This document shows, piece after piece, positions 4,872-27,234 of a stretch of DNA of 64,000 nt. The stretch comes from Escherichia phage iGC_PHA_EC001: sequence record OR437326.1; one strand, 5' to 3'. How positions within the stretch are numbered: the stretch's first letter is position 1; each line of letters begins with the position of its first letter. The notes under the pieces are model-generated. The model did not search any database, was not told the origin of the DNA, and saw nothing but the letters and a program-made list of their open reading frames with translations. Position numbers and translations under genes: made by a program.

Positions 4872-5505
4872 TTTTAATATCCTCTAAAGATGCTTTATAT
4901 TCTTCCCAGTTAATCCCGATAGCAGCTTCTTTCTCTTCTTTTGTCAGATTAGCAAAAGGCATAGGGTTGTTTCCAAAAACATCGTCTGGGTGGATATAAG
5001 CCATGATACGAAGTGGACAAGGTGTTGCCTGAATACCATGATTCAAACCAGCAGCTTGCAAACGGTGTCCCCATTCAGCATCTTCAAAACCATAGCCGTG
5101 AGTGTAAGGACGGAAATAACCCATCTTCTCAACAACGGCACGAGAATACATTGCAAATTGACACATTGCAAGTTCCCAGAGAATAACTTCTCCTTTGCTT
5201 CCAACAACTTTATCTTTGAAATACTCCGGCATACCAAAGAAATCCCATCCTCCAGAGACAGCTTGATCTACAAAGTATGTTTCCCATCCCTCCATGACTG
5301 GGTAGCAATCGTCGTCAAAAATAAACCAATAATCATAACCTTCTTCATAAAACTGGTGCATAAGTTCATTCCTGGCATAAGCTACACCTTTACGATCTGG
5401 ATCGTTGAATACTCGAAAATCTGCACGTGGATCTGTTACAAGGTAGTCTTTAAGTGGACGGACACCTACAGTGATAACACCCACTCCAATTTTAATATTT
5501 TCCAT
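4822..5505 (-). CDS. glycosyltransferase family 2-like (GT-A fold)
   Basis: DYWFIFDDDCYP (DxD-type motif) and HGYGFEDAEWGHR motif typical of GT-A galactosyl/glucosyltransferases. Confidence 0.6.
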   Translation of the reverse strand: MENIKIGVGVITVGVRPLKDYLVTDPRADFRVFNDPDRKGVAYARNELMHQFYEEGYDYWFIFDDDCYPVMEGWETYFVDQAVSGGWDFFGMPEYFKDKVVGSKGEVILWELAMCQFAMYSRAVVEKMGYFRPYTHGYGFEDAEWGHRLQAAGLNHGIQATPCPLRIMAYIHPDDVFGNNPMPFANLTKEEKEAAIGINWEEYKASLEDIKNGKIRISYEEALAHVK

Positions 5506-5513
5506 TTTCTCTC

Positions 5514-6077
5514 CTAAATAGTTTTACTGTGATCATGACAGTGTAATAAATGATGTATAGACCGTTGAGGATTTGTTTGACCTAATCTGTAAATGTGAAA
5601 CAGATACATTCCCCGCATCAATCCTAACCTCTTTCCTTTTTCATGTAAAGTGCGAGAGAAAATTAAGTCGAATTGGATAGATTTTTCTTCGAAAGGAATT
5701 TCATTCCACAATGATTTTCTAAAAAGCAAGAAGAAACCTGCCAGAGGTGTTCCGAAAGGAACTTCTTCAACACTCACTTTATGATATTCTCTTGCAATCT
5801 TAGCATATTCTATATGGTTTAGAATATCTGGATCATCATTAATTTGGTTAGAGAAAAGCTGATAACCACTGCCTAACCTGTTACAAGTTGCACCTATTAC
5901 ATCAAAAGGCGGGTTTGACATAACAAGCTCTTCAAGCATAGATGGTTGATCAGGTAGGAGGAACATTGTATCGGTATCTCTTAAACACACCCAACTATCA
6001 TCTGGAAGAACGGCAATGGCTTCATTGATAGCCTTGCCGATATTTCCTGTCAGATAGGGAGTAATATAATAAATCAT
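5514..6077 (-). CDS. putative nucleotide-sugar glycosyltransferase (GT-A-like)
   Basis: N-terminal YYITPY..N.G..NEAI..D.W..LRDTDTMF pattern reminiscent of GT-A Rossmann-like start; weak. Confidence 0.4.
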   Translation of the reverse strand: MIYYITPYLTGNIGKAINEAIAVLPDDSWVCLRDTDTMFLLPDQPSMLEELVMSNPPFDVIGATCNRLGSGYQLFSNQINDDPDILNHIEYAKIAREYHKVSVEEVPFGTPLAGFFLLFRKSLWNEIPFEEKSIQFDLIFSRTLHEKGKRLGLMRGMYLFHIYRLGQTNPQRSIHHLLHCHDHSKTI

Positions 6078-6094
6078 TCTCCCCCTCCGTTATA

Positions 6095-6286
6095 TTAACT
6101 GTCAGCTACAATCCCACGTTTAATCATTTCTTGTTGAATCTGGATCACACGATCTCGTGCTTCCATATATTCTTTAAAAGATTCTTGGAGATGGTCACGG
6201 GCTACGTCCCGTAGTTTAATCAGTTTGTCGTTTGTCACTTCTTGAAGAGAGATCTCGCCAGTTTCATTGGTCCCAAGCGTTTTCAT
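6095..6286 (-). CDS. hypothetical protein (63 aa)
   Basis: Small ORF in array. Confidence 0.4.
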   Translation of the reverse strand: MKTLGTNETGEISLQEVTNDKLIKLRDVARDHLQESFKEYMEARDRVIQIQQEMIKRGIVADS

Positions 6287-6542
6287 TTACAACCTCCTTA
6301 ATAGCTACTGCACAGTTCTTACAAATACATTGACCTTTGTTCTTAGAAATTTCAATGTAAGGTTCATTTTCGTTTTCTCCGCGTCGTGAGTCGTATATTA
6401 CTGTATTGAAGCAGACAACGCAAATGTTTTTAATAACGACATATTTTTGCACTTTCTGTTTAGTGCGAAAATTGACTTCAATGACTTCTCCCATCAATGA
6501 ATCTCCCCTAAAATGTTGTTTTGAGACATTACTGCGGAGCAT
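6264..6542 (-). CDS. hypothetical Cys-rich protein (92 aa)
   Basis: CVVC..CICKNC spacing suggests zinc ribbon. Confidence 0.45.
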   Translation of the reverse strand: MLRSNVSKQHFRGDSLMGEVIEVNFRTKQKVQKYVVIKNICVVCFNTVIYDSRRGENENEPYIEISKNKGQCICKNCAVAIKEVVNENAWDQ

Positions 6543-6778
6543 TCTACAGCATCATGAGTCCTTGCAAAACGCTCCCACAACACAGCATCTACTTTAAGAA
6601 CCATACAAGGATAAATACTGTCGTTGATCATATCAATGCTATATTTATCTACATCCTTTTCATCTTCCATAAACAAAGTAGCGTATGCTTCTAAATGCTT
6701 ACGGGTGTAGTATACATCCTCTTCAGTAAGACCGACAACCAGGTAACTTGCTACAACAACAGTATTATCTTCTTGCAT
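6494..6778 (-). CDS. hypothetical protein (94 aa from refined start)
   Basis: ORF-track ORF 6494..6841 trimmed to Met22 (MQEDNTVV) which has RBS aaggggag and abuts the upstream stop. Confidence 0.45.
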   Translation of the reverse strand: MQEDNTVVVASYLVVGLTEEDVYYTRKHLEAYATLFMEDEKDVDKYSIDMINDSIYPCMVLKVDAVLWERFARTHDAVECSAVMSQNNILGEIH

Positions 6779-6779
6779 T

Positions 6780-7301
6780 TTAACTCCCCTTTGGTAGATA
6801 GAAACCATGCACTTTATCTCGATAAACAAGACGCATATCACGTTCCCAGTGTGTCCTTATATTCCGTTTCTTGAAGTATAGAGCACCTTTAGTAACATCT
6901 AAAACAGACCGCAATTCAGGAAAATGTTTCTCTAAATAAAGTAAACGCTCCGCTATTGCTTTTGCTTCCTGCCACTTATCTTTCTCTGTTACGTTAAAAG
7001 TTTTCGCATATGAGAATTGTCCTTTCTGGAACAAGACTCCTCTGACTGTGTTAGGGAAGTAGGTATCATTTCTTCTGTTGATTACCACATTCCCAACGGC
7101 ATTCATTCCTTTTTTACCCAGACCGCGACCTTCTGCGTAAATTGCACAAGCTAATAGAATTTTATCATTATATTGCTTTGTACATTTGTGAACTACTTTA
7201 GCGGTTTTTACGTTTGCAGCTTCGGCTTTCGCCACAACAGGTGTAAATGTAAAAGCAGTTAAGGATAGTAACGCAACTGTTACAAAGTTTTTTATCAGCA
7301 A
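6780..7301 (-). CDS. SleB/CwlJ-like cell wall hydrolase with signal peptide
   Basis: N-terminal hydrophobic leader ending AKA; LLACAIYAEGRG and GNVVINRRN match the Hydrolase_2 (SleB) family pattern; TTG start after RBS aaggagg. Confidence 0.7.
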   Translation of the reverse strand: MLIKNFVTVALLSLTAFTFTPVVAKAEAANVKTAKVVHKCTKQYNDKILLACAIYAEGRGLGKKGMNAVGNVVINRRNDTYFPNTVRGVLFQKGQFSYAKTFNVTEKDKWQEAKAIAERLLYLEKHFPELRSVLDVTKGALYFKKRNIRTHWERDMRLVYRDKVHGFYLPKGS

Positions 7302-7324
7302 ATTTTGCCTCCTTTTTAAGTTAA

Positions 7325-7362
7325 CGAATTTCTAGTATAACACGATAGAGGCTTTATTGCAA
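7325..7362 (-). promoter_or_regulatory. sigma70-like promoter for the SleB-like gene
   Basis: Minus strand ttgcaa-N17-tatact upstream of RBS aaggagg. Confidence 0.45.
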
Positions 7363-7382
7363 GAGGGGGATTTCTCCCCCTC
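7363..7382 (-). terminator. hairpin terminator after the TerD gene
   Basis: gaggggga-tttc-tccccctc hairpin just downstream of the TerD stop. Confidence 0.5.
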
Positions 7383-7400
7383 AAAATCATTTGTTAATTA

Positions 7401-8003
7401 TTATGGACATTCATACCATTCTTTTTTACCACCGAAGGCCATCACCACATCACAAATATCCAGACCAGCTTTACCTACACCATATGCTTTCAGCTTCCAT
7501 TCCCCATCTTCACGAACCAAGGAAGCCACGTGGCAGATTGTGTTGCCAGCTACTTCAGGAGCCAGGAAGTCAAAATCCAGAATTTCCACATTGCGCTCGG
7601 AGTCGAAGATTTTAAGCATACCTTCAGAAGCATGACCAAAACGTTTCAGACCTGTATCATCATCAATGGTCAGAACAAAGGCAATCTCTTGTGCATCAGG
7701 AGAGATTTTAGCCAGAGTAATATCAATCTGCTCCATGCTGCCAGTTCCATCACGAACATCGTCACCAGCGAAGGTAGAACGTTCAGGATCAAACTTGTTA
7801 GCATAGCAAACCAGATGACGTGCAGACAGCATTTCAGGATTACCAGCGGCATTGTGACGACAAACCAGTGCACTTACATCCAGATCCAGTTTAGAATCAG
7901 ATTTCCAAGAGAATTCCAGGCGCAGTTCTTTCAGAGCCGGAGCAACTTTCTTCAGGGAAATTTTTTCGCTAGAGCCTTTTTTCAGGGAAATTTTATCAGT
8001 CAT
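7401..8003 (-). CDS. TerD-domain protein (tellurite-resistance TerD family)
   Basis: Aligns along its length with E. coli TerD as recalled: DLDVSAL, FAGDDVRDGTGSMEQIDI (Ca-binding GDN..GDGDDE region), FVLTIDD, EDGEWKLKAYGVGK. Confidence 0.9.
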   Translation of the reverse strand: MTDKISLKKGSSEKISLKKVAPALKELRLEFSWKSDSKLDLDVSALVCRHNAAGNPEMLSARHLVCYANKFDPERSTFAGDDVRDGTGSMEQIDITLAKISPDAQEIAFVLTIDDDTGLKRFGHASEGMLKIFDSERNVEILDFDFLAPEVAGNTICHVASLVREDGEWKLKAYGVGKAGLDICDVVMAFGGKKEWYECP

Positions 8004-8018
8004 CTTTTGTCTCCTCTA

Positions 8019-8288
8019 TTATTTAAGTGTAATACCAGTTACAGTCAATTCTACTTCCAAAAGCTTAGATGTGTTTTGGATTGATACTAATTGTGCATGA
8101 TGGTTTAGTTCTACAGCAGAATAATCATTTTCCCCATCATCTACTTTTAAATAAACAATGATTTCACTAAGGTCTAAACCATTTTCGTCAAATGCATTTT
8201 CATAGACGAAAGTATCTCCTACATCCAAATCTTTAATGGTAAGGCATCGTTTATTTACTTTTTGCTCATCAATTTCGAAGTTTAACAC
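8019..8288 (-). CDS. hypothetical protein, small paralog family (copy preceding TerD)
   Basis: Paralog of 9310..9588 (shared DLDVG.TF.Y, GLD, V.L.VT.ITLK). Confidence 0.55.
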   Translation of the reverse strand: MLNFEIDEQKVNKRCLTIKDLDVGDTFVYENAFDENGLDLSEIIVYLKVDDGENDYSAVELNHHAQLVSIQNTSKLLEVELTVTGITLK

Positions 8289-24289: not shown

Positions 24290-24805
24290 TTAATAAAAAC
24301 TCTTGACAATCCTCATCATTTCCTTAGCTCTGCTGGCATAAGGTTCTTTTAGATTAGGTGGCAAATGTGCATTAATGTACCCCATTTGTTTTTCCCATGT
24401 CCACTTATCTTTAAATCTTGGCATGGTGTCTCCTGCTAAACTGTTTTCTTTTCGTGTTTGAATAATCCAATTACATGGAAAATGCACACCACCTTTACGG
24501 AAAGGAATATAATGTCCCAATGTGAATGCCTTATTGTTCTTTAAACGTCCAGCTAAATTAAGATTAACAATAAGACTACGAAACACGTAGTATTGATAAA
24601 GATTGTCAACAGTATATACAGAGTAGTATGCTCTAAGTGCATTATCTCGACTAAGATTACCAACATCCAAACTACACCAGTTTAAATTACTTGGATCGTA
24701 GTTGTGATTATCAATCCATTCTTCTCTTTCCTCAAATTCTGCATTAACAGCAGACTGCCCTGCTGTAGATACAAAAAGAGAATTTGCATCAAAGAACATA
24801 CTCAC
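24290..24805 (-). CDS. hypothetical protein (171 aa)
   Basis: ORF-track ORF. Confidence 0.5.
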   Translation of the reverse strand: MSMFFDANSLFVSTAGQSAVNAEFEEREEWIDNHNYDPSNLNWCSLDVGNLSRDNALRAYYSVYTVDNLYQYYVFRSLIVNLNLAGRLKNNKAFTLGHYIPFRKGGVHFPCNWIIQTRKENSLAGDTMPRFKDKWTWEKQMGYINAHLPPNLKEPYASRAKEMMRIVKSFY

Positions 24806-24812
24806 TCCCCCT

Positions 24813-25166
24813 TTAGTTTACATCGTTTAGAGCATTACCAATCTTTAAGATAATAACATCATTAAGAGCTTCTTCTCCATTAAGGCCAGAGAAAGCAGGA
24901 GTAACGAAAGTTACCATATAATAATGGTCTTCTTGTAGAATTGCGATAACGCCGTCTAGTTTAACATCTCCTGTGAAACGAAAAACTTTCAACTTTTGTT
25001 CTAAAGGAAGATCTCCTTCAACATTTAAAACCATATCTCCGACACCAAACTTTTCTGCCCCGATGTAGATGTAAGCTTGGTCCTCTTTTTTATGATAATA
25101 CAATGTTGCTTGTTTGTCTTGTAGTGTTGTGATACCAAACACATCTACATCAATAATATTTTTCAA
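24813..25166 (-). CDS. hypothetical protein (117 aa)
   Basis: ORF-track ORF. Confidence 0.5.
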   Translation of the reverse strand: MKNIIDVDVFGITTLQDKQATLYYHKKEDQAYIYIGAEKFGVGDMVLNVEGDLPLEQKLKVFRFTGDVKLDGVIAILQEDHYYMVTFVTPAFSGLNGEEALNDVIILKIGNALNDVN

Positions 25167-25178
25167 AAAATTCTCCTC

Positions 25179-25721
25179 TTATTTTGTGTTGACCTTATTT
25201 CGCATTAACCTGTGGGATACAGAGTTGCGAGATCTGTTTAGAACCTTACCAATCCCTGCATGACTATACCCTTCACTATTTAACTTTTCAAGAATCTGGT
25301 CTTCTTCCTCTGTCCAGTAGCGGCGTTTAGCTTGTCTATCATCCACACCATACATGATAGGTTGCTTTACATCCATCACTTTTAGCAATCTGACAGCCTC
25401 TTCCGCTTTCTCTTTTTTGAAACGGAGATAAGGGATTAAATTCTCAAGCAATCTTATCACACTTTCTCTGCTGCTAACATTGATATTATACATCAAATTA
25501 TCATATTTTTCAGCCCAAGCTACGCGCGATGTGAAAGAGACAGTATATCCATAACTTTCCAACTCTTTAGCCAAATCGGTCATTTCTTCTGCCGATCTCT
25601 CGTGTTGTGTAAGGTTTACTGTGTAGGAGTCTGAAGTCTCCCTGTTTCTGCTTATAATAGATCCATCACAATCTATGCAACCTGCGTAGTAAGCATAAAA
25701 CAGTTGTTCTTTTATGTCCAC
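25179..25721 (-). CDS. LAGLIDADG-like homing-endonuclease-type protein with C-terminal Myb/HTH-like DNA-binding region
   Basis: N-terminal FYAYYAGCIDCDGSIIS matches LAGLIDADG motif (LAGFVDGDGSI); C-terminal WTEEEDQILEKL..G..IGKVLNRSRNSVSHRL resembles Myb/SANT-type HTH. Confidence 0.5.
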   Translation of the reverse strand: MDIKEQLFYAYYAGCIDCDGSIISRNRETSDSYTVNLTQHERSAEEMTDLAKELESYGYTVSFTSRVAWAEKYDNLMYNINVSSRESVIRLLENLIPYLRFKKEKAEEAVRLLKVMDVKQPIMYGVDDRQAKRRYWTEEEDQILEKLNSEGYSHAGIGKVLNRSRNSVSHRLMRNKVNTK

Positions 25722-25725
25722 AATA

Positions 25726-26088
25726 TTAACCTAAACACATACGTGCGATCAGACCATGGATGAGCTTATCTGCTTCTTCACGATCATAGTCGGTATCTTC
25801 TATACCACCATCTTCGTCACGATAAACTTTACCTTCCAGGTACCCAGCATCGATCAAACCAATAATCAAATCGAACTGCCAGCAAGAGTTACCGAAAGGG
25901 CGTTTTCCACTGAAGCTATCTTCTTCTTCCCAAAGCGTAGAGAGCAGTCGTCTGAAATATTCACGCACAGTAACAGTGCCAAGATCATCGTCTTCAAAAA
26001 CAACATCTAAAGCATCTGGTTCAGCTTTCTCTACAACAGGCACATAACGTTGACCATTAATAACAACATCTACGATTGTTTCTCTCAT
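25726..26088 (-). CDS. hypothetical protein (120 aa)
   Basis: ORF-track ORF. Confidence 0.5.
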   Translation of the reverse strand: MRETIVDVVINGQRYVPVVEKAEPDALDVVFEDDDLGTVTVREYFRRLLSTLWEEEDSFSGKRPFGNSCWQFDLIIGLIDAGYLEGKVYRDEDGGIEDTDYDREEADKLIHGLIARMCLG

Positions 26089-26447
26089 TTTTCCTCCTTT
26101 TTGTATTCAATGAACATATCTGCATAGTAAGCTTTACGTTCTTCAAATTTAGCAGGGTTTACCACAATGAACAACACCTTTCTGTTGTCTTGTGGTTCTT
26201 TGACTGTAATATATAAATCTTTTGTGCAATAGAAACCTGTGGCTTTGTAAGCGTCACCCCAATTATCCACTCCACGATCTATACGATCAAACTTGCAGTT
26301 ATACTTTTTATCATCCACTTGGTAGACAGCCTCCCCACCATACCAAGTGAAGAATTGGCTACCTTCCACCCCAATCTTGAAACCATCACGGGCGGCTGTA
26401 GCATTGGTGGCAATCATCAACATCATGACACAAGGTAGCCTTTTCAT
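26085..26447 (-). CDS. secreted protein with signal peptide (120 aa)
   Basis: MKRLPCVMMLMIATNATAA leader. Confidence 0.5.
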   Translation of the reverse strand: MKRLPCVMMLMIATNATAARDGFKIGVEGSQFFTWYGGEAVYQVDDKKYNCKFDRIDRGVDNWGDAYKATGFYCTKDLYITVKEPQDNRKVLFIVVNPAKFEERKAYYADMFIEYKKEEK

Positions 26448-26753
26448 TTAGAATTCCTCTTCAGTCTTCTGTCGGTTTTTGAAGAATACTACGTCATATA
26501 CCTCTCCGTAACCATCATTTACACAGAACATAATAAAACGATCATCTTCTGCTGTTGGTGCGCGATGTTCAAGTTCAAAACTTTCAATAAAACCGCGTGA
26601 ATTTACGTAGTAGATTTCATCCTCGCCAGAGAACATCCAATCCCTGTCTATCAGATAGAAAGCTAAACTCACAGGCGACAACTCATCCTTCACAGAATCA
26701 TTGTACAGCATGTGGGCTGCAACTGCCAAGCTTAAAGTCGGGTTATACAACAT
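26448..26753 (-). CDS. hypothetical protein, tandem paralog a
   Basis: Paralog of 26753..27061 (E.E.R.P..EDD/E.FIM(F/Y).VN.G.GE...VVF.K). Confidence 0.5.
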   Translation of the reverse strand: MLYNPTLSLAVAAHMLYNDSVKDELSPVSLAFYLIDRDWMFSGEDEIYYVNSRGFIESFELEHRAPTAEDDRFIMFCVNDGYGEVYDVVFFKNRQKTEEEF

Positions 26754-27061
26754 TACACCTCCTCGTCAGACTCATCTGCTTTAGAGAATACAACATTAAA
26801 CGTTTCACCGCAACCATTATTTACGAAATACATGATAAAGTTTTCATCTTCGTCTACAGGGCCACGGTATTCCAGTTCGTAGCTATACAGAGAACTATCG
26901 CTTGTGGCTCCCTGCGGATACCAGAAATAGATCTCATCGAAAGATTTAACCCACTTCAAACCTGTACGATCCTCAAACACTAATGAGGAAGGATTGTCAG
27001 CATCTTTGACAGCTTCTTCATAATCTTGGTGGAACTTGACTGCTGTTGATAATGTGCTCAT
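26753..27061 (-). CDS. hypothetical protein, tandem paralog b
   Basis: ORF-track ORF trimmed to Met14 with RBS gaggagg. Confidence 0.5.
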   Translation of the reverse strand: MSTLSTAVKFHQDYEEAVKDADNPSSLVFEDRTGLKWVKSFDEIYFWYPQGATSDSSLYSYELEYRGPVDEDENFIMYFVNNGCGETFNVVFSKADESDEEV

Positions 27062-27234
27062 TATGCCTCCTCGTAATGTTTGCAAACAACGTGTCTCCAC
27101 GTCTTCTTATAATGTTCTCGCTTCGTCATAGCTTCTTGATAAGAGGGAATACGCTGTAACAGAAGTCTCCATTCACAATCTACGCCCATACGTCCGTACA
27201 AAGCATAACGAACATTGTTTTTCTTGTCTTGCAT
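27061..27234 (-). CDS. hypothetical small protein (57 aa)
   Basis: Own translation MQDKKNNVRYALYGRMGVDCEW..; RBS ggaggg; TAATG coupling to downstream gene. Confidence 0.35.
   Translation of the reverse strand: MQDKKNNVRYALYGRMGVDCEWRLLLQRIPSYQEAMTKREHYKKTWRHVVCKHYEEA

Follow-up and report, generated by a model that had tools for sequence, protein, structure and literature searches.

Does a phage gene whose product begins with a near match to the LAGLIDADG motif and ends in a Myb-like pattern encode a selfish DNA-cutting enzyme, or a regulator that was made from one? The gene in question lies on the minus strand of a 64,000-nucleotide stretch of Escherichia phage iGC_PHA_EC001 (OR437326.1), which we refer to as the window (positions of the gene and its parts are given in Table 1). 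An earlier reading made from the letters alone, here called the sequence-only reading, had left the choice between a free-standing homing endonuclease and a domesticated DNA-binding regulator derived from one. We consider it probable that the gene is a free-standing homing endonuclease of the I-CreI type with a tethered helix-turn-helix (HTH) domain; its catalytic residues and its mobility favor this first alternative and disfavor the second. The source phage is a Phapecoctavirus (a phAPEC8-like coliphage of ~150 kb), and the 5-kb neighborhood of the gene shows 94 to 99% identity to dozens of GenBank Phapecoctavirus phages.

A single-motif LAGLIDADG core of the I-CreI type

The open reading frame (ORF) is intact and encodes 180 amino acids (aa), from a GTG start at 25719-25721 to a TAA stop at 25179-25181. 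The GTG start is backed by homologs, whose own starts (M-D/E-I-K-E-Q-L-F-Y) align with it and, in the sister lineage, are ATG; the copy in phage WPEC4 is annotated shorter, from the internal Met47, a start with which the motif helix would be lost. The N-terminal motif with two cysteines that the sequence-only reading had described is present, the motif proper being YAGCIDCDG (residues 12 to 20) with Cys at its fourth (C15) and seventh (C18) positions.

The AlphaFold model, based on seven sequences, has a mean predicted local distance difference test score (pLDDT) of 79 and shows the order H-E-E-H-E-E-H-H (H, helix; E, strand), followed by a linker and three further helices. We observe that the model core adopts the alpha-beta-beta-alpha-beta-beta-alpha LAGLIDADG fold with a four-stranded sheet, and that the top Foldseek matches in the PDB are all homodimeric LAGLIDADG enzymes, namely I-CreI, I-CvuI, and I-MsoI (probability 1.0). 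Superposition on I-CreI (1bp7_A) gives a root mean square deviation of 1.9 A over 120 columns, at an identity to the I-CreI-type structural matches of ~17 to 24%, and viral LAGLIDADG proteins also match the model. Furthermore, phmmer against PDB sequences returns weak matches to I-MsoI, I-CreI, and I-CvuI that run end to end over residues 4 to 121. The LAGLIDADG fold, whose absence the sequence-only reading had named as its refutation, was thus recovered by structure prediction as well as by family-level Pfam matches (see below), and we conclude that the protein has an I-CreI-type LAGLIDADG core, with a sequence match beyond chance.

With respect to the active site, D19 corresponds to I-CreI D20 in the HMMER alignment. 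Q39 and K102 are presumably the equivalents of I-CreI Q47 and K98, an assignment for which the local motifs LTQ and P-[YF]-L-x-[FL]-K were matched with I-CreI by eye.

Family membership and conservation

The protein matches PHROG 16747 ("unknown function") at an E value of 7e-46. An exhaustive profile search returned 2352 proteins at an E value of at most 0.001, of which ~60 cluster representatives (170 to 200 aa) match end to end, and many genuine multi-repeat Myb/HTH_38 proteins match through the tail region alone. Conservation was counted in an alignment of 48 full-length family representatives, in which A13, D17, G20, Q39, K102, and W136 are invariant (48/48) and residue 19 is Asp in 46 and Glu in two. 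LAGLIDADG_1 matches 27 of these representatives (best E value, 7e-8) and LAGLIDADG_3 matches 19 (E value of at most 0.01), while the tail is matched by HTH_38 in 14 (best E value, 1.2e-7), by GcrA in six, and by Myb in six. Compared with a lineage that is 77% identical, nonsynonymous divergence (pN) is 0.15 and synonymous divergence (pS) is 0.79, with synonymous sites saturated, giving a pN/pS of ~0.19. Judged from these sequences, the conservation profile fits an enzyme that has been kept active and not a WhiA-like scaffold.

This profile bears directly on the domesticated regulator, in which a LAGLIDADG scaffold with an HTH would have lost nuclease activity and would now regulate phage or host genes, as in WhiA, where the LAGLIDADG catalytic residues have been replaced (PMC3384342). 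The arrangement of a LAGLIDADG domain followed by a C-terminal HTH does parallel that of WhiA (PMC3384342), and the tail resembles transcription factor HTHs, with a match to PHROG 323 ("transcriptional regulator") at an E value of 8.6e-9. We nevertheless regard such a regulator as highly improbable, because D19, Q39, and K102 are conserved across the 48 representatives; in addition, no WhiA Pfam family matches the protein even at an E value of up to 10.

The family has been noticed previously at the level of annotation. RB43ORF066w, which belongs to the same two-domain family (37.5% identity over residues 8 to 174), was listed in 2006 among putative mobile elements as "LAGLIDADG endonuclease, E 0.15" (PMC1524935), and the Schickermooser record notes HTH_38 as well as similarity to RB43ORF066w. 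The PcCB7V copy is annotated as "intron-encoded endonuclease i-crei," the automatic UniProt name for the N-terminal fragment from phage ukendt is LAGLIDADG domain protein, and the label "hypothetical protein" is attached to the majority of copies, among them every close one. No experimental characterization of any family member was found in the literature searched, and the gene itself is an uncharacterized member of a well-known kind of enzyme.

The C-terminal tail is a helix-turn-helix domain

Residues 136 to 172 read WTEEEDQILEKLNSEGYSHAGIGKVLNRSRNSVSHRL, which is the WTEEED...RS...HRL tail that the sequence-only reading had called Myb/SANT-like. In the AlphaFold model, a disordered linker (pLDDT below 50 for residues 119 to 128) leads into three helices (residues 138 to 149, 154 to 161, and 165 to 177). 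HTH_38 (PF13936) matches residues 132 to 175 over its full 44 positions (E value, 2.4e-4; 21.2 bits versus a gathering threshold of 27), and Myb_DNA-binding also scores below its cut-off (E value, 1.6e-3; 19.0 bits versus 24.4); the tail resembles the GcrA and sigma-70 region 4 HTHs in Pfam as well. Only the first of the Myb tryptophans (W136) is conserved, the later core positions being Ile157 and a variable Leu/Ile at 172. The tail can be called, with fair confidence, an HTH_38/Myb-like HTH: the three-helix DNA-binding domain stands, and "Myb" alone is too specific, because the profile hidden Markov models (HMMs) place HTH_38 marginally ahead of Myb and, of the three Myb tryptophans, just the first is conserved. 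A model of the isolated C-terminal domain, made without an alignment, reached a pLDDT of 59, which is too low to search for similar folds, and the tail assignment therefore rests on the HMMs and the full-length model.

The gene is sporadic, mobile, and prone to decay among close relatives

DNA of the endonuclease gene is found at an identity of at least 99.6% in 13 records, all of them Phapecoctavirus, and in 84 records the same slot is occupied by an unrelated 122-codon DUF4326 gene (80 to 100% identity). The swap is exactly ORF for ORF: similarity to the DUF4326-type allele stops at 25722, just past the stop codon of the upstream 120-aa gene, and restarts within the 12-nucleotide (nt) spacer before the downstream 117-aa gene. 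Only the last 106 nt (~35 codons) are kept in four records, which represent the three phages nepoznato, DIJ07P2, and AV126, and the 446-bp deletion seen there leaves the stop codon of the upstream gene preserved. In phage ukendt, an additional A in the A6 run that encodes K102-K103 splits the ORF, which may reflect either a genuine frameshift or an error in the sequencing of the homopolymer. The comparison of related phages with and without the gene that had been suggested with the sequence-only reading thus brought out presence and absence, a frameshift, and deletion remnants among near-identical phages. A gene that is missing from most members of the genus, swapped with an unrelated gene, and frameshifted or deleted elsewhere is unlike a needed regulator.

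Diversity was assessed in a 12.5-kb alignment of seven carriers, one stub-bearing phage, and five noncarriers. Among carriers, it amounts to 0.001 to 0.002 in the gene and 0.008 to 0.026 in the adjacent 300-bp bins, and it climbs to 0.15 to 0.20 within 300 to 900 bp of the gene (at 26005-26604). The gene is found on two haplotypes of the next upstream gene (26085-26447; 120-aa ORF, minus strand) that are ~25% apart in DNA, with a sharp haplotype switch near 26050-26074 in phages whose identity is otherwise 95% or higher; one of these haplotypes is common to all five noncarriers, and both occur with the endonuclease gene. Furthermore, the flanks of the window are closest to phages that do not carry the gene (B15, 98.9%, and DE16, 98.5%; best carrier, 95.8% over 5 kb). 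The gene moves between backgrounds and then decays, as is expected of a homing endonuclease gene.

Two peculiarities of the records were noted along the way. The copy in WPEC1 (PV659873.1, 11741-12232) covers ~89 to 91% of the query and has three to four separate matching places in the record, a pattern that may be an assembly or terminal-repeat artifact. In addition, MG065650.1, OP562383.1, MH252123.1, and MW175890.1, named as Campylobacter, Acinetobacter, Klebsiella, and "Dompiswa" phages, are 95 to 99% identical to the region, and their host labels may not reflect the true hosts.

Recurrent linkage to DUF4326 and a candidate target

The gene that occupies the slot in the alternative allele (L002:2665-3033, 122 aa) matches Pfam DUF4326 at an E value of 8.6e-22 and no other family. 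DUF4326 has been proposed as a rhodanese-phosphatase-type domain acting on ADP-ribose derivatives (PMC9503650). Several records (e.g., NC_047994.1 and NC_052659.1) annotate the slot gene as "ribonucleotide reductase NrdA-like."

In five of five more distant contexts that could be read around full-length homologs (P0005/L027, P0004/L029, P0003/L031, and P0006/L032, at 52 to 57% identity, and L035, at 31%), the endonuclease homolog stands directly after the 3' end of a DUF4326 gene or overlaps it by 1 to 10 nt, and these homologs span at least three different neighborhoods. In the specific case of L032, the locus is syntenic with the window, with the endonuclease and DUF4326 genes both present in tandem in the order 120-aa gene, DUF4326, endonuclease, 124-aa gene, and, a few genes further, a UvrD helicase. 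DE16 and L027 encode DUF4326 proteins that share 63% identity. The 77%-identical P0002 lineage has the DUF4326-less arrangement with the same junction as the window, and for this reason that arrangement is old. No second copy of DUF4326 was detected in the 64-kb window by tblastn. In the distant clades of RB43, RB16, and KP27 (between nrdB and denA) and of the Pectobacterium Certreviruses, the family member is not beside DUF4326; the family has therefore changed sites. Scans of IMG/VR yielded four loci with the flanking gene and seven with the family alignment, too few for statistics on the DUF4326 linkage.

Fixed single nucleotide polymorphisms between carriers and noncarriers were not found within ~500 bp of the gene except at the junction base 25722, so that any target responsible for self-immunity must lie in the replaced segment. 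The comparisons suggest, short of proof, that DUF4326 carries the cleavage target of the endonuclease. Our working model, in which the homing site lies in DUF4326 and the Phapecoctavirus allele has lost the target gene, is offered tentatively, as a serious candidate that may well be wrong.

The cysteine pair and points of caution about an active homing enzyme

Several observations weigh against an active homing endonuclease, one of which concerns the two cysteines of the motif. C18 corresponds to I-CreI G19, beside the catalytic D20, and C15 corresponds to I-CreI F16. In I-CreI, the Ser of a G19S substitution contacts the backbone of G15 of the partner subunit, beside F16, and the G19S/G19S enzyme has undetectable activity through a steric clash (PMC3025557). 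A Cys at this position, which would be present in both subunits if the protein is a homodimer, is our main caution regarding full activity. It could be that C18 cripples cleavage and that the intact ORF is a catalytically weakened or inactive remnant, persisting by hitch-hiking on its way towards loss; the decayed copies in sister phages, the GTG start with its weak ribosome-binding site, and the status of minority allele would all fit such a fate. Nonetheless, position 18 is Cys in 23 of the 48 representatives (Gly in 22 and Ala in three) and invariably so in the close clade to which the window belongs, the catalytic residues are intact, and pN/pS is low. The LAGLIDADG consensus itself has Ala at this position. 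Position 15 is Cys in 14 representatives and Phe in 33, and C15 is always accompanied by C18 (14/14; Fisher P = 1.7e-6, uncorrected for shared ancestry). The pair is thus a conserved, covarying lineage trait and not a mark of motif decay, and it would fit a compensated dimer interface, since the two residues covary at positions that touch across the I-CreI dimer. Taken together, we find a weakened or inactive remnant unlikely.

The population pattern, too, stops short of proving nuclease-driven transmission. With 13 records versus 84, the endonuclease is the minority allele, hence not sweeping. There is no clear co-conversion valley, carrier diversity in the immediate flanks not being below that of noncarriers, and ordinary recombination could therefore have spread the gene. 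This would make it an accessory cassette of a hyperplastic region, with a nuclease that serves some end other than its own homing, for instance the exclusion of competitor phages or the degradation of host or plasmid DNA, an explanation in line with the mosaic neighborhood, the two haplotypes of the next gene, the other variable ORFs, and swap boundaries that coincide with gene boundaries, which is common among phage cassettes. The free-standing homing enzymes of T4 are known to exclude a competitor's markers as a by-product. The cassette does not account so readily for a gene that is near-identical across divergent backgrounds, for a family that is repeatedly linked to DUF4326 in unrelated neighborhoods, or for its placement in known homing endonuclease hotspots such as the nrd region of T4-like phages, and we hold it to be quite unlikely.

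Further points on the negative side are less specific. Single-sequence Pfam scores are all under the gathering thresholds (LAGLIDADG_3, residues 10 to 94; E value, 7.8e-4; 20.1 bits versus 22.5). A scan of the DUF4326 allele (L002:2501-3200) for pseudo-palindromic 22-mers in the style of I-CreI found none at eight or more of nine pairs and one at seven or more of nine, versus 1.1 expected, i.e., nothing above chance. Expression of the gene may be low, because the GTG start has a weak Shine-Dalgarno sequence and the gene lacks a dedicated promoter. No terminator was found adjoining it either, and the RNA around the start codon folds in no conspicuous way (z = -0.48). Finally, cleavage activity, target site, and biased inheritance are all inferred.

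Proposed mechanism and comparison with known systems

If the gene is a homing endonuclease, two subunits would pair via the motif helix (residues 3 to 18) and form two active sites around D19, aided by Q39 and K102. The HTH of each subunit, held on a flexible linker of ~12 residues, would add a DNA contact outside the core site, a role proposed by analogy with the GIY-YIG and HNH homing enzymes of phages, whose DNA-binding modules are tethered likewise. When two phages infect one cell, the enzyme would cut the allele that does not carry it. The cut would most likely fall inside the DUF4326 gene or at its edge, and the break would be repaired from the endonuclease-bearing genome via the homologous flanking genes for the 120-aa and 117-aa proteins. 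Repair would replace DUF4326 with the endonuclease gene. Carriers, in which the target is absent, would be immune, and the gene would decay later, as in the frameshifted and deleted copies.

The protein shares with I-CreI, I-MsoI, and I-CvuI the core fold of ~120 residues with one motif per chain, and with I-CreI the catalytic Asp that ends the motif helix and the equivalents of Q47 and K98. It differs from these enzymes, which are encoded in group I introns of algal chloroplasts, in being the product of a free-standing gene and in the three-helix HTH that follows a flexible linker (the C-terminal part of I-CreI consists of short helices and a loop only), as well as in having Cys in place of I-CreI G19 and F16. 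Enzymes of the I-CreI type are homodimeric, whereas dimerization and cleavage of the phage protein are predicted. The single motif per chain and the covariation of C15 with C18 are indirect evidence for a homodimer.

Similar to the Seg and Mob genes of T4-like phages, the gene is free-standing and intergenic, lies beside or replaces its presumed target, and is distributed sporadically in closely related phages. I-TevI and I-HmuI likewise have a nuclease domain with a tethered, separate HTH-type module for DNA binding, and like T4-like homing genes, the family has a member in the nrd region of RB43 and RB16. Seg, Mob, I-TevI, and I-HmuI work as monomers with a catalytic domain of the GIY-YIG or HNH type, whereas the phage protein has a LAGLIDADG domain and is expected to need dimerization.

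Membership in the WhiA/DUF199 family was considered and rejected on the grounds of the single domain, the retained catalytic positions, and the missing Pfam match. WhiA has two LAGLIDADG domains per chain with catalytic residues lost and is a conserved housekeeping regulator of Gram-positive bacteria, whereas the phage protein has one domain with residues kept and its gene is sporadic and decaying; the C-terminal HTH (residues 138 to 177) is an architectural parallel only.

A broader proposal is that these proteins form a distinct phage lineage of dimeric LAGLIDADG enzymes, which would have gained a tethered HTH, would track one accessory gene, DUF4326, as homing site, and would have replaced it in Phapecoctavirus, with C15/C18 as the mark of a remodeled dimer interface beside the active site that tolerates a side chain where I-CreI needs Gly. 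As a whole, we regard this proposal as rather doubtful.

Gene neighborhood and feature positions

The endonuclease gene is located in a series of short ORFs that share one orientation, upstream of the gene for a UvrD-type helicase. Sigma-70-like promoter matches are commoner at 24700-26500 than in shuffled sequence (13 versus 5.2; standard deviation, 2.2), an excess that may be compositional in this AT-rich sequence. Two good matches (25513-25485 and 25291-25263) fall within the endonuclease ORF, on the strand that encodes it, from where the downstream genes could be transcribed.

Table 1. Positions of the endonuclease gene, its parts, and its junctions in the window
Feature	Position	Strand	Remarks
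LAGLIDADG + HTH endonuclease ORF, complete	25179..25721	minus	180 codons + TAA stop; PHROG 16747, six close homologs
LAGLIDADG core domain, residues 1-119	25365..25721	minus	AlphaFold model and Foldseek matches
Core elements H3-18, E21-26, E31-40, H44-56, E61-70, E73-82, H85-98, H103-119		minus	AlphaFold model
Motif stretch FYAYYAGCIDCDGSIIS, residues 8-24	25650..25700	minus	Matches LAGLIDADG consensus
C15 codon	25677-25679	minus	
C18 codon	25668-25670	minus	
D19 codon, catalytic-position Asp	25665-25667	minus	Counterpart of I-CreI D20
Q39 codon	25605..25607	minus	Invariant 48/48; aligned with I-CreI active-site Q47
K102-K103 codons (AAAAAA)	25413..25418	minus	K102 invariant 48/48; aligned with I-CreI K98
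Linker, residues 120-131	25329..25364	minus	Low confidence, unstructured in model
C-terminal three-helix HTH domain, residues 132-177	25191..25328	minus	HMMs and AlphaFold model
Deleted segment, 446 bp between two GTTAA microhomologies	25285..25730	minus	nepoznato, DIJ07P2, AV126
5' junction	25722..25728	minus	Stop of upstream 120-aa gene (25726-25728) and 4-nt spacer
3' junction	25167..25178	minus	12-nt spacer with GAGGAG before TTG start (25166) of downstream 117-aa gene

The surroundings of the gene are variable in other respects as well. The segment 20660-22444, whose genes lie between those for the anaerobic ribonucleotide reductase and the helicase, is strongly hypervariable, with a pairwise diversity of 0.10 to 0.28 in carriers and noncarriers versus ~0.02 in its flanks. 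Two minus-strand ORFs at 26448-26753 (101 aa) and 26753-27100 (115 aa) look like tandem paralogs, with a common end pattern, recognized by eye, of ELE-x-R-x-P...D..FIM..VN.G.GE...VVF. In the Phapecoctavirus-like metagenomic contig L026 (SRR32678539_2590), the UvrD-type helicase (5436-8075) has 879 aa versus 533 and Hint/intein-splicing matches; upstream of the endonuclease slot, at a distance of a few genes, a 339-aa T5orf172/DUF723 gene (1489-2508) is inserted. The endonuclease neighborhood seems to gather several kinds of selfish element.

Implications

The current understanding of homing endonucleases is unchanged by these findings; a modest extra interest lies in the HTH tethered to a single-motif core, the C15/C18 pair, and the recurrent DUF4326 link. 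In practical terms, a reading as LAGLIDADG + HTH homing endonucleases can be given to PHROG 16747 and to the products labeled "hypothetical protein" in a dozen or more Phapecoctavirus genomes, and the same reannotation extends to RB43, RB16, KP27, and the Pectobacterium phage relatives. A natural I-CreI-type core that combines a tethered HTH with Cys for Gly offers enzyme engineers a small natural experiment in longer targets and an altered dimer interface. If the broader proposal above is true, the endonuclease and a candidate counter-defense gene would compete as alternative alleles of one slot. Phapecoctaviruses are often isolated as candidate therapeutic coliphages, and an enzyme that removes DUF4326 from co-infecting relatives would, if this is so, affect the recombination of cocktail phages.

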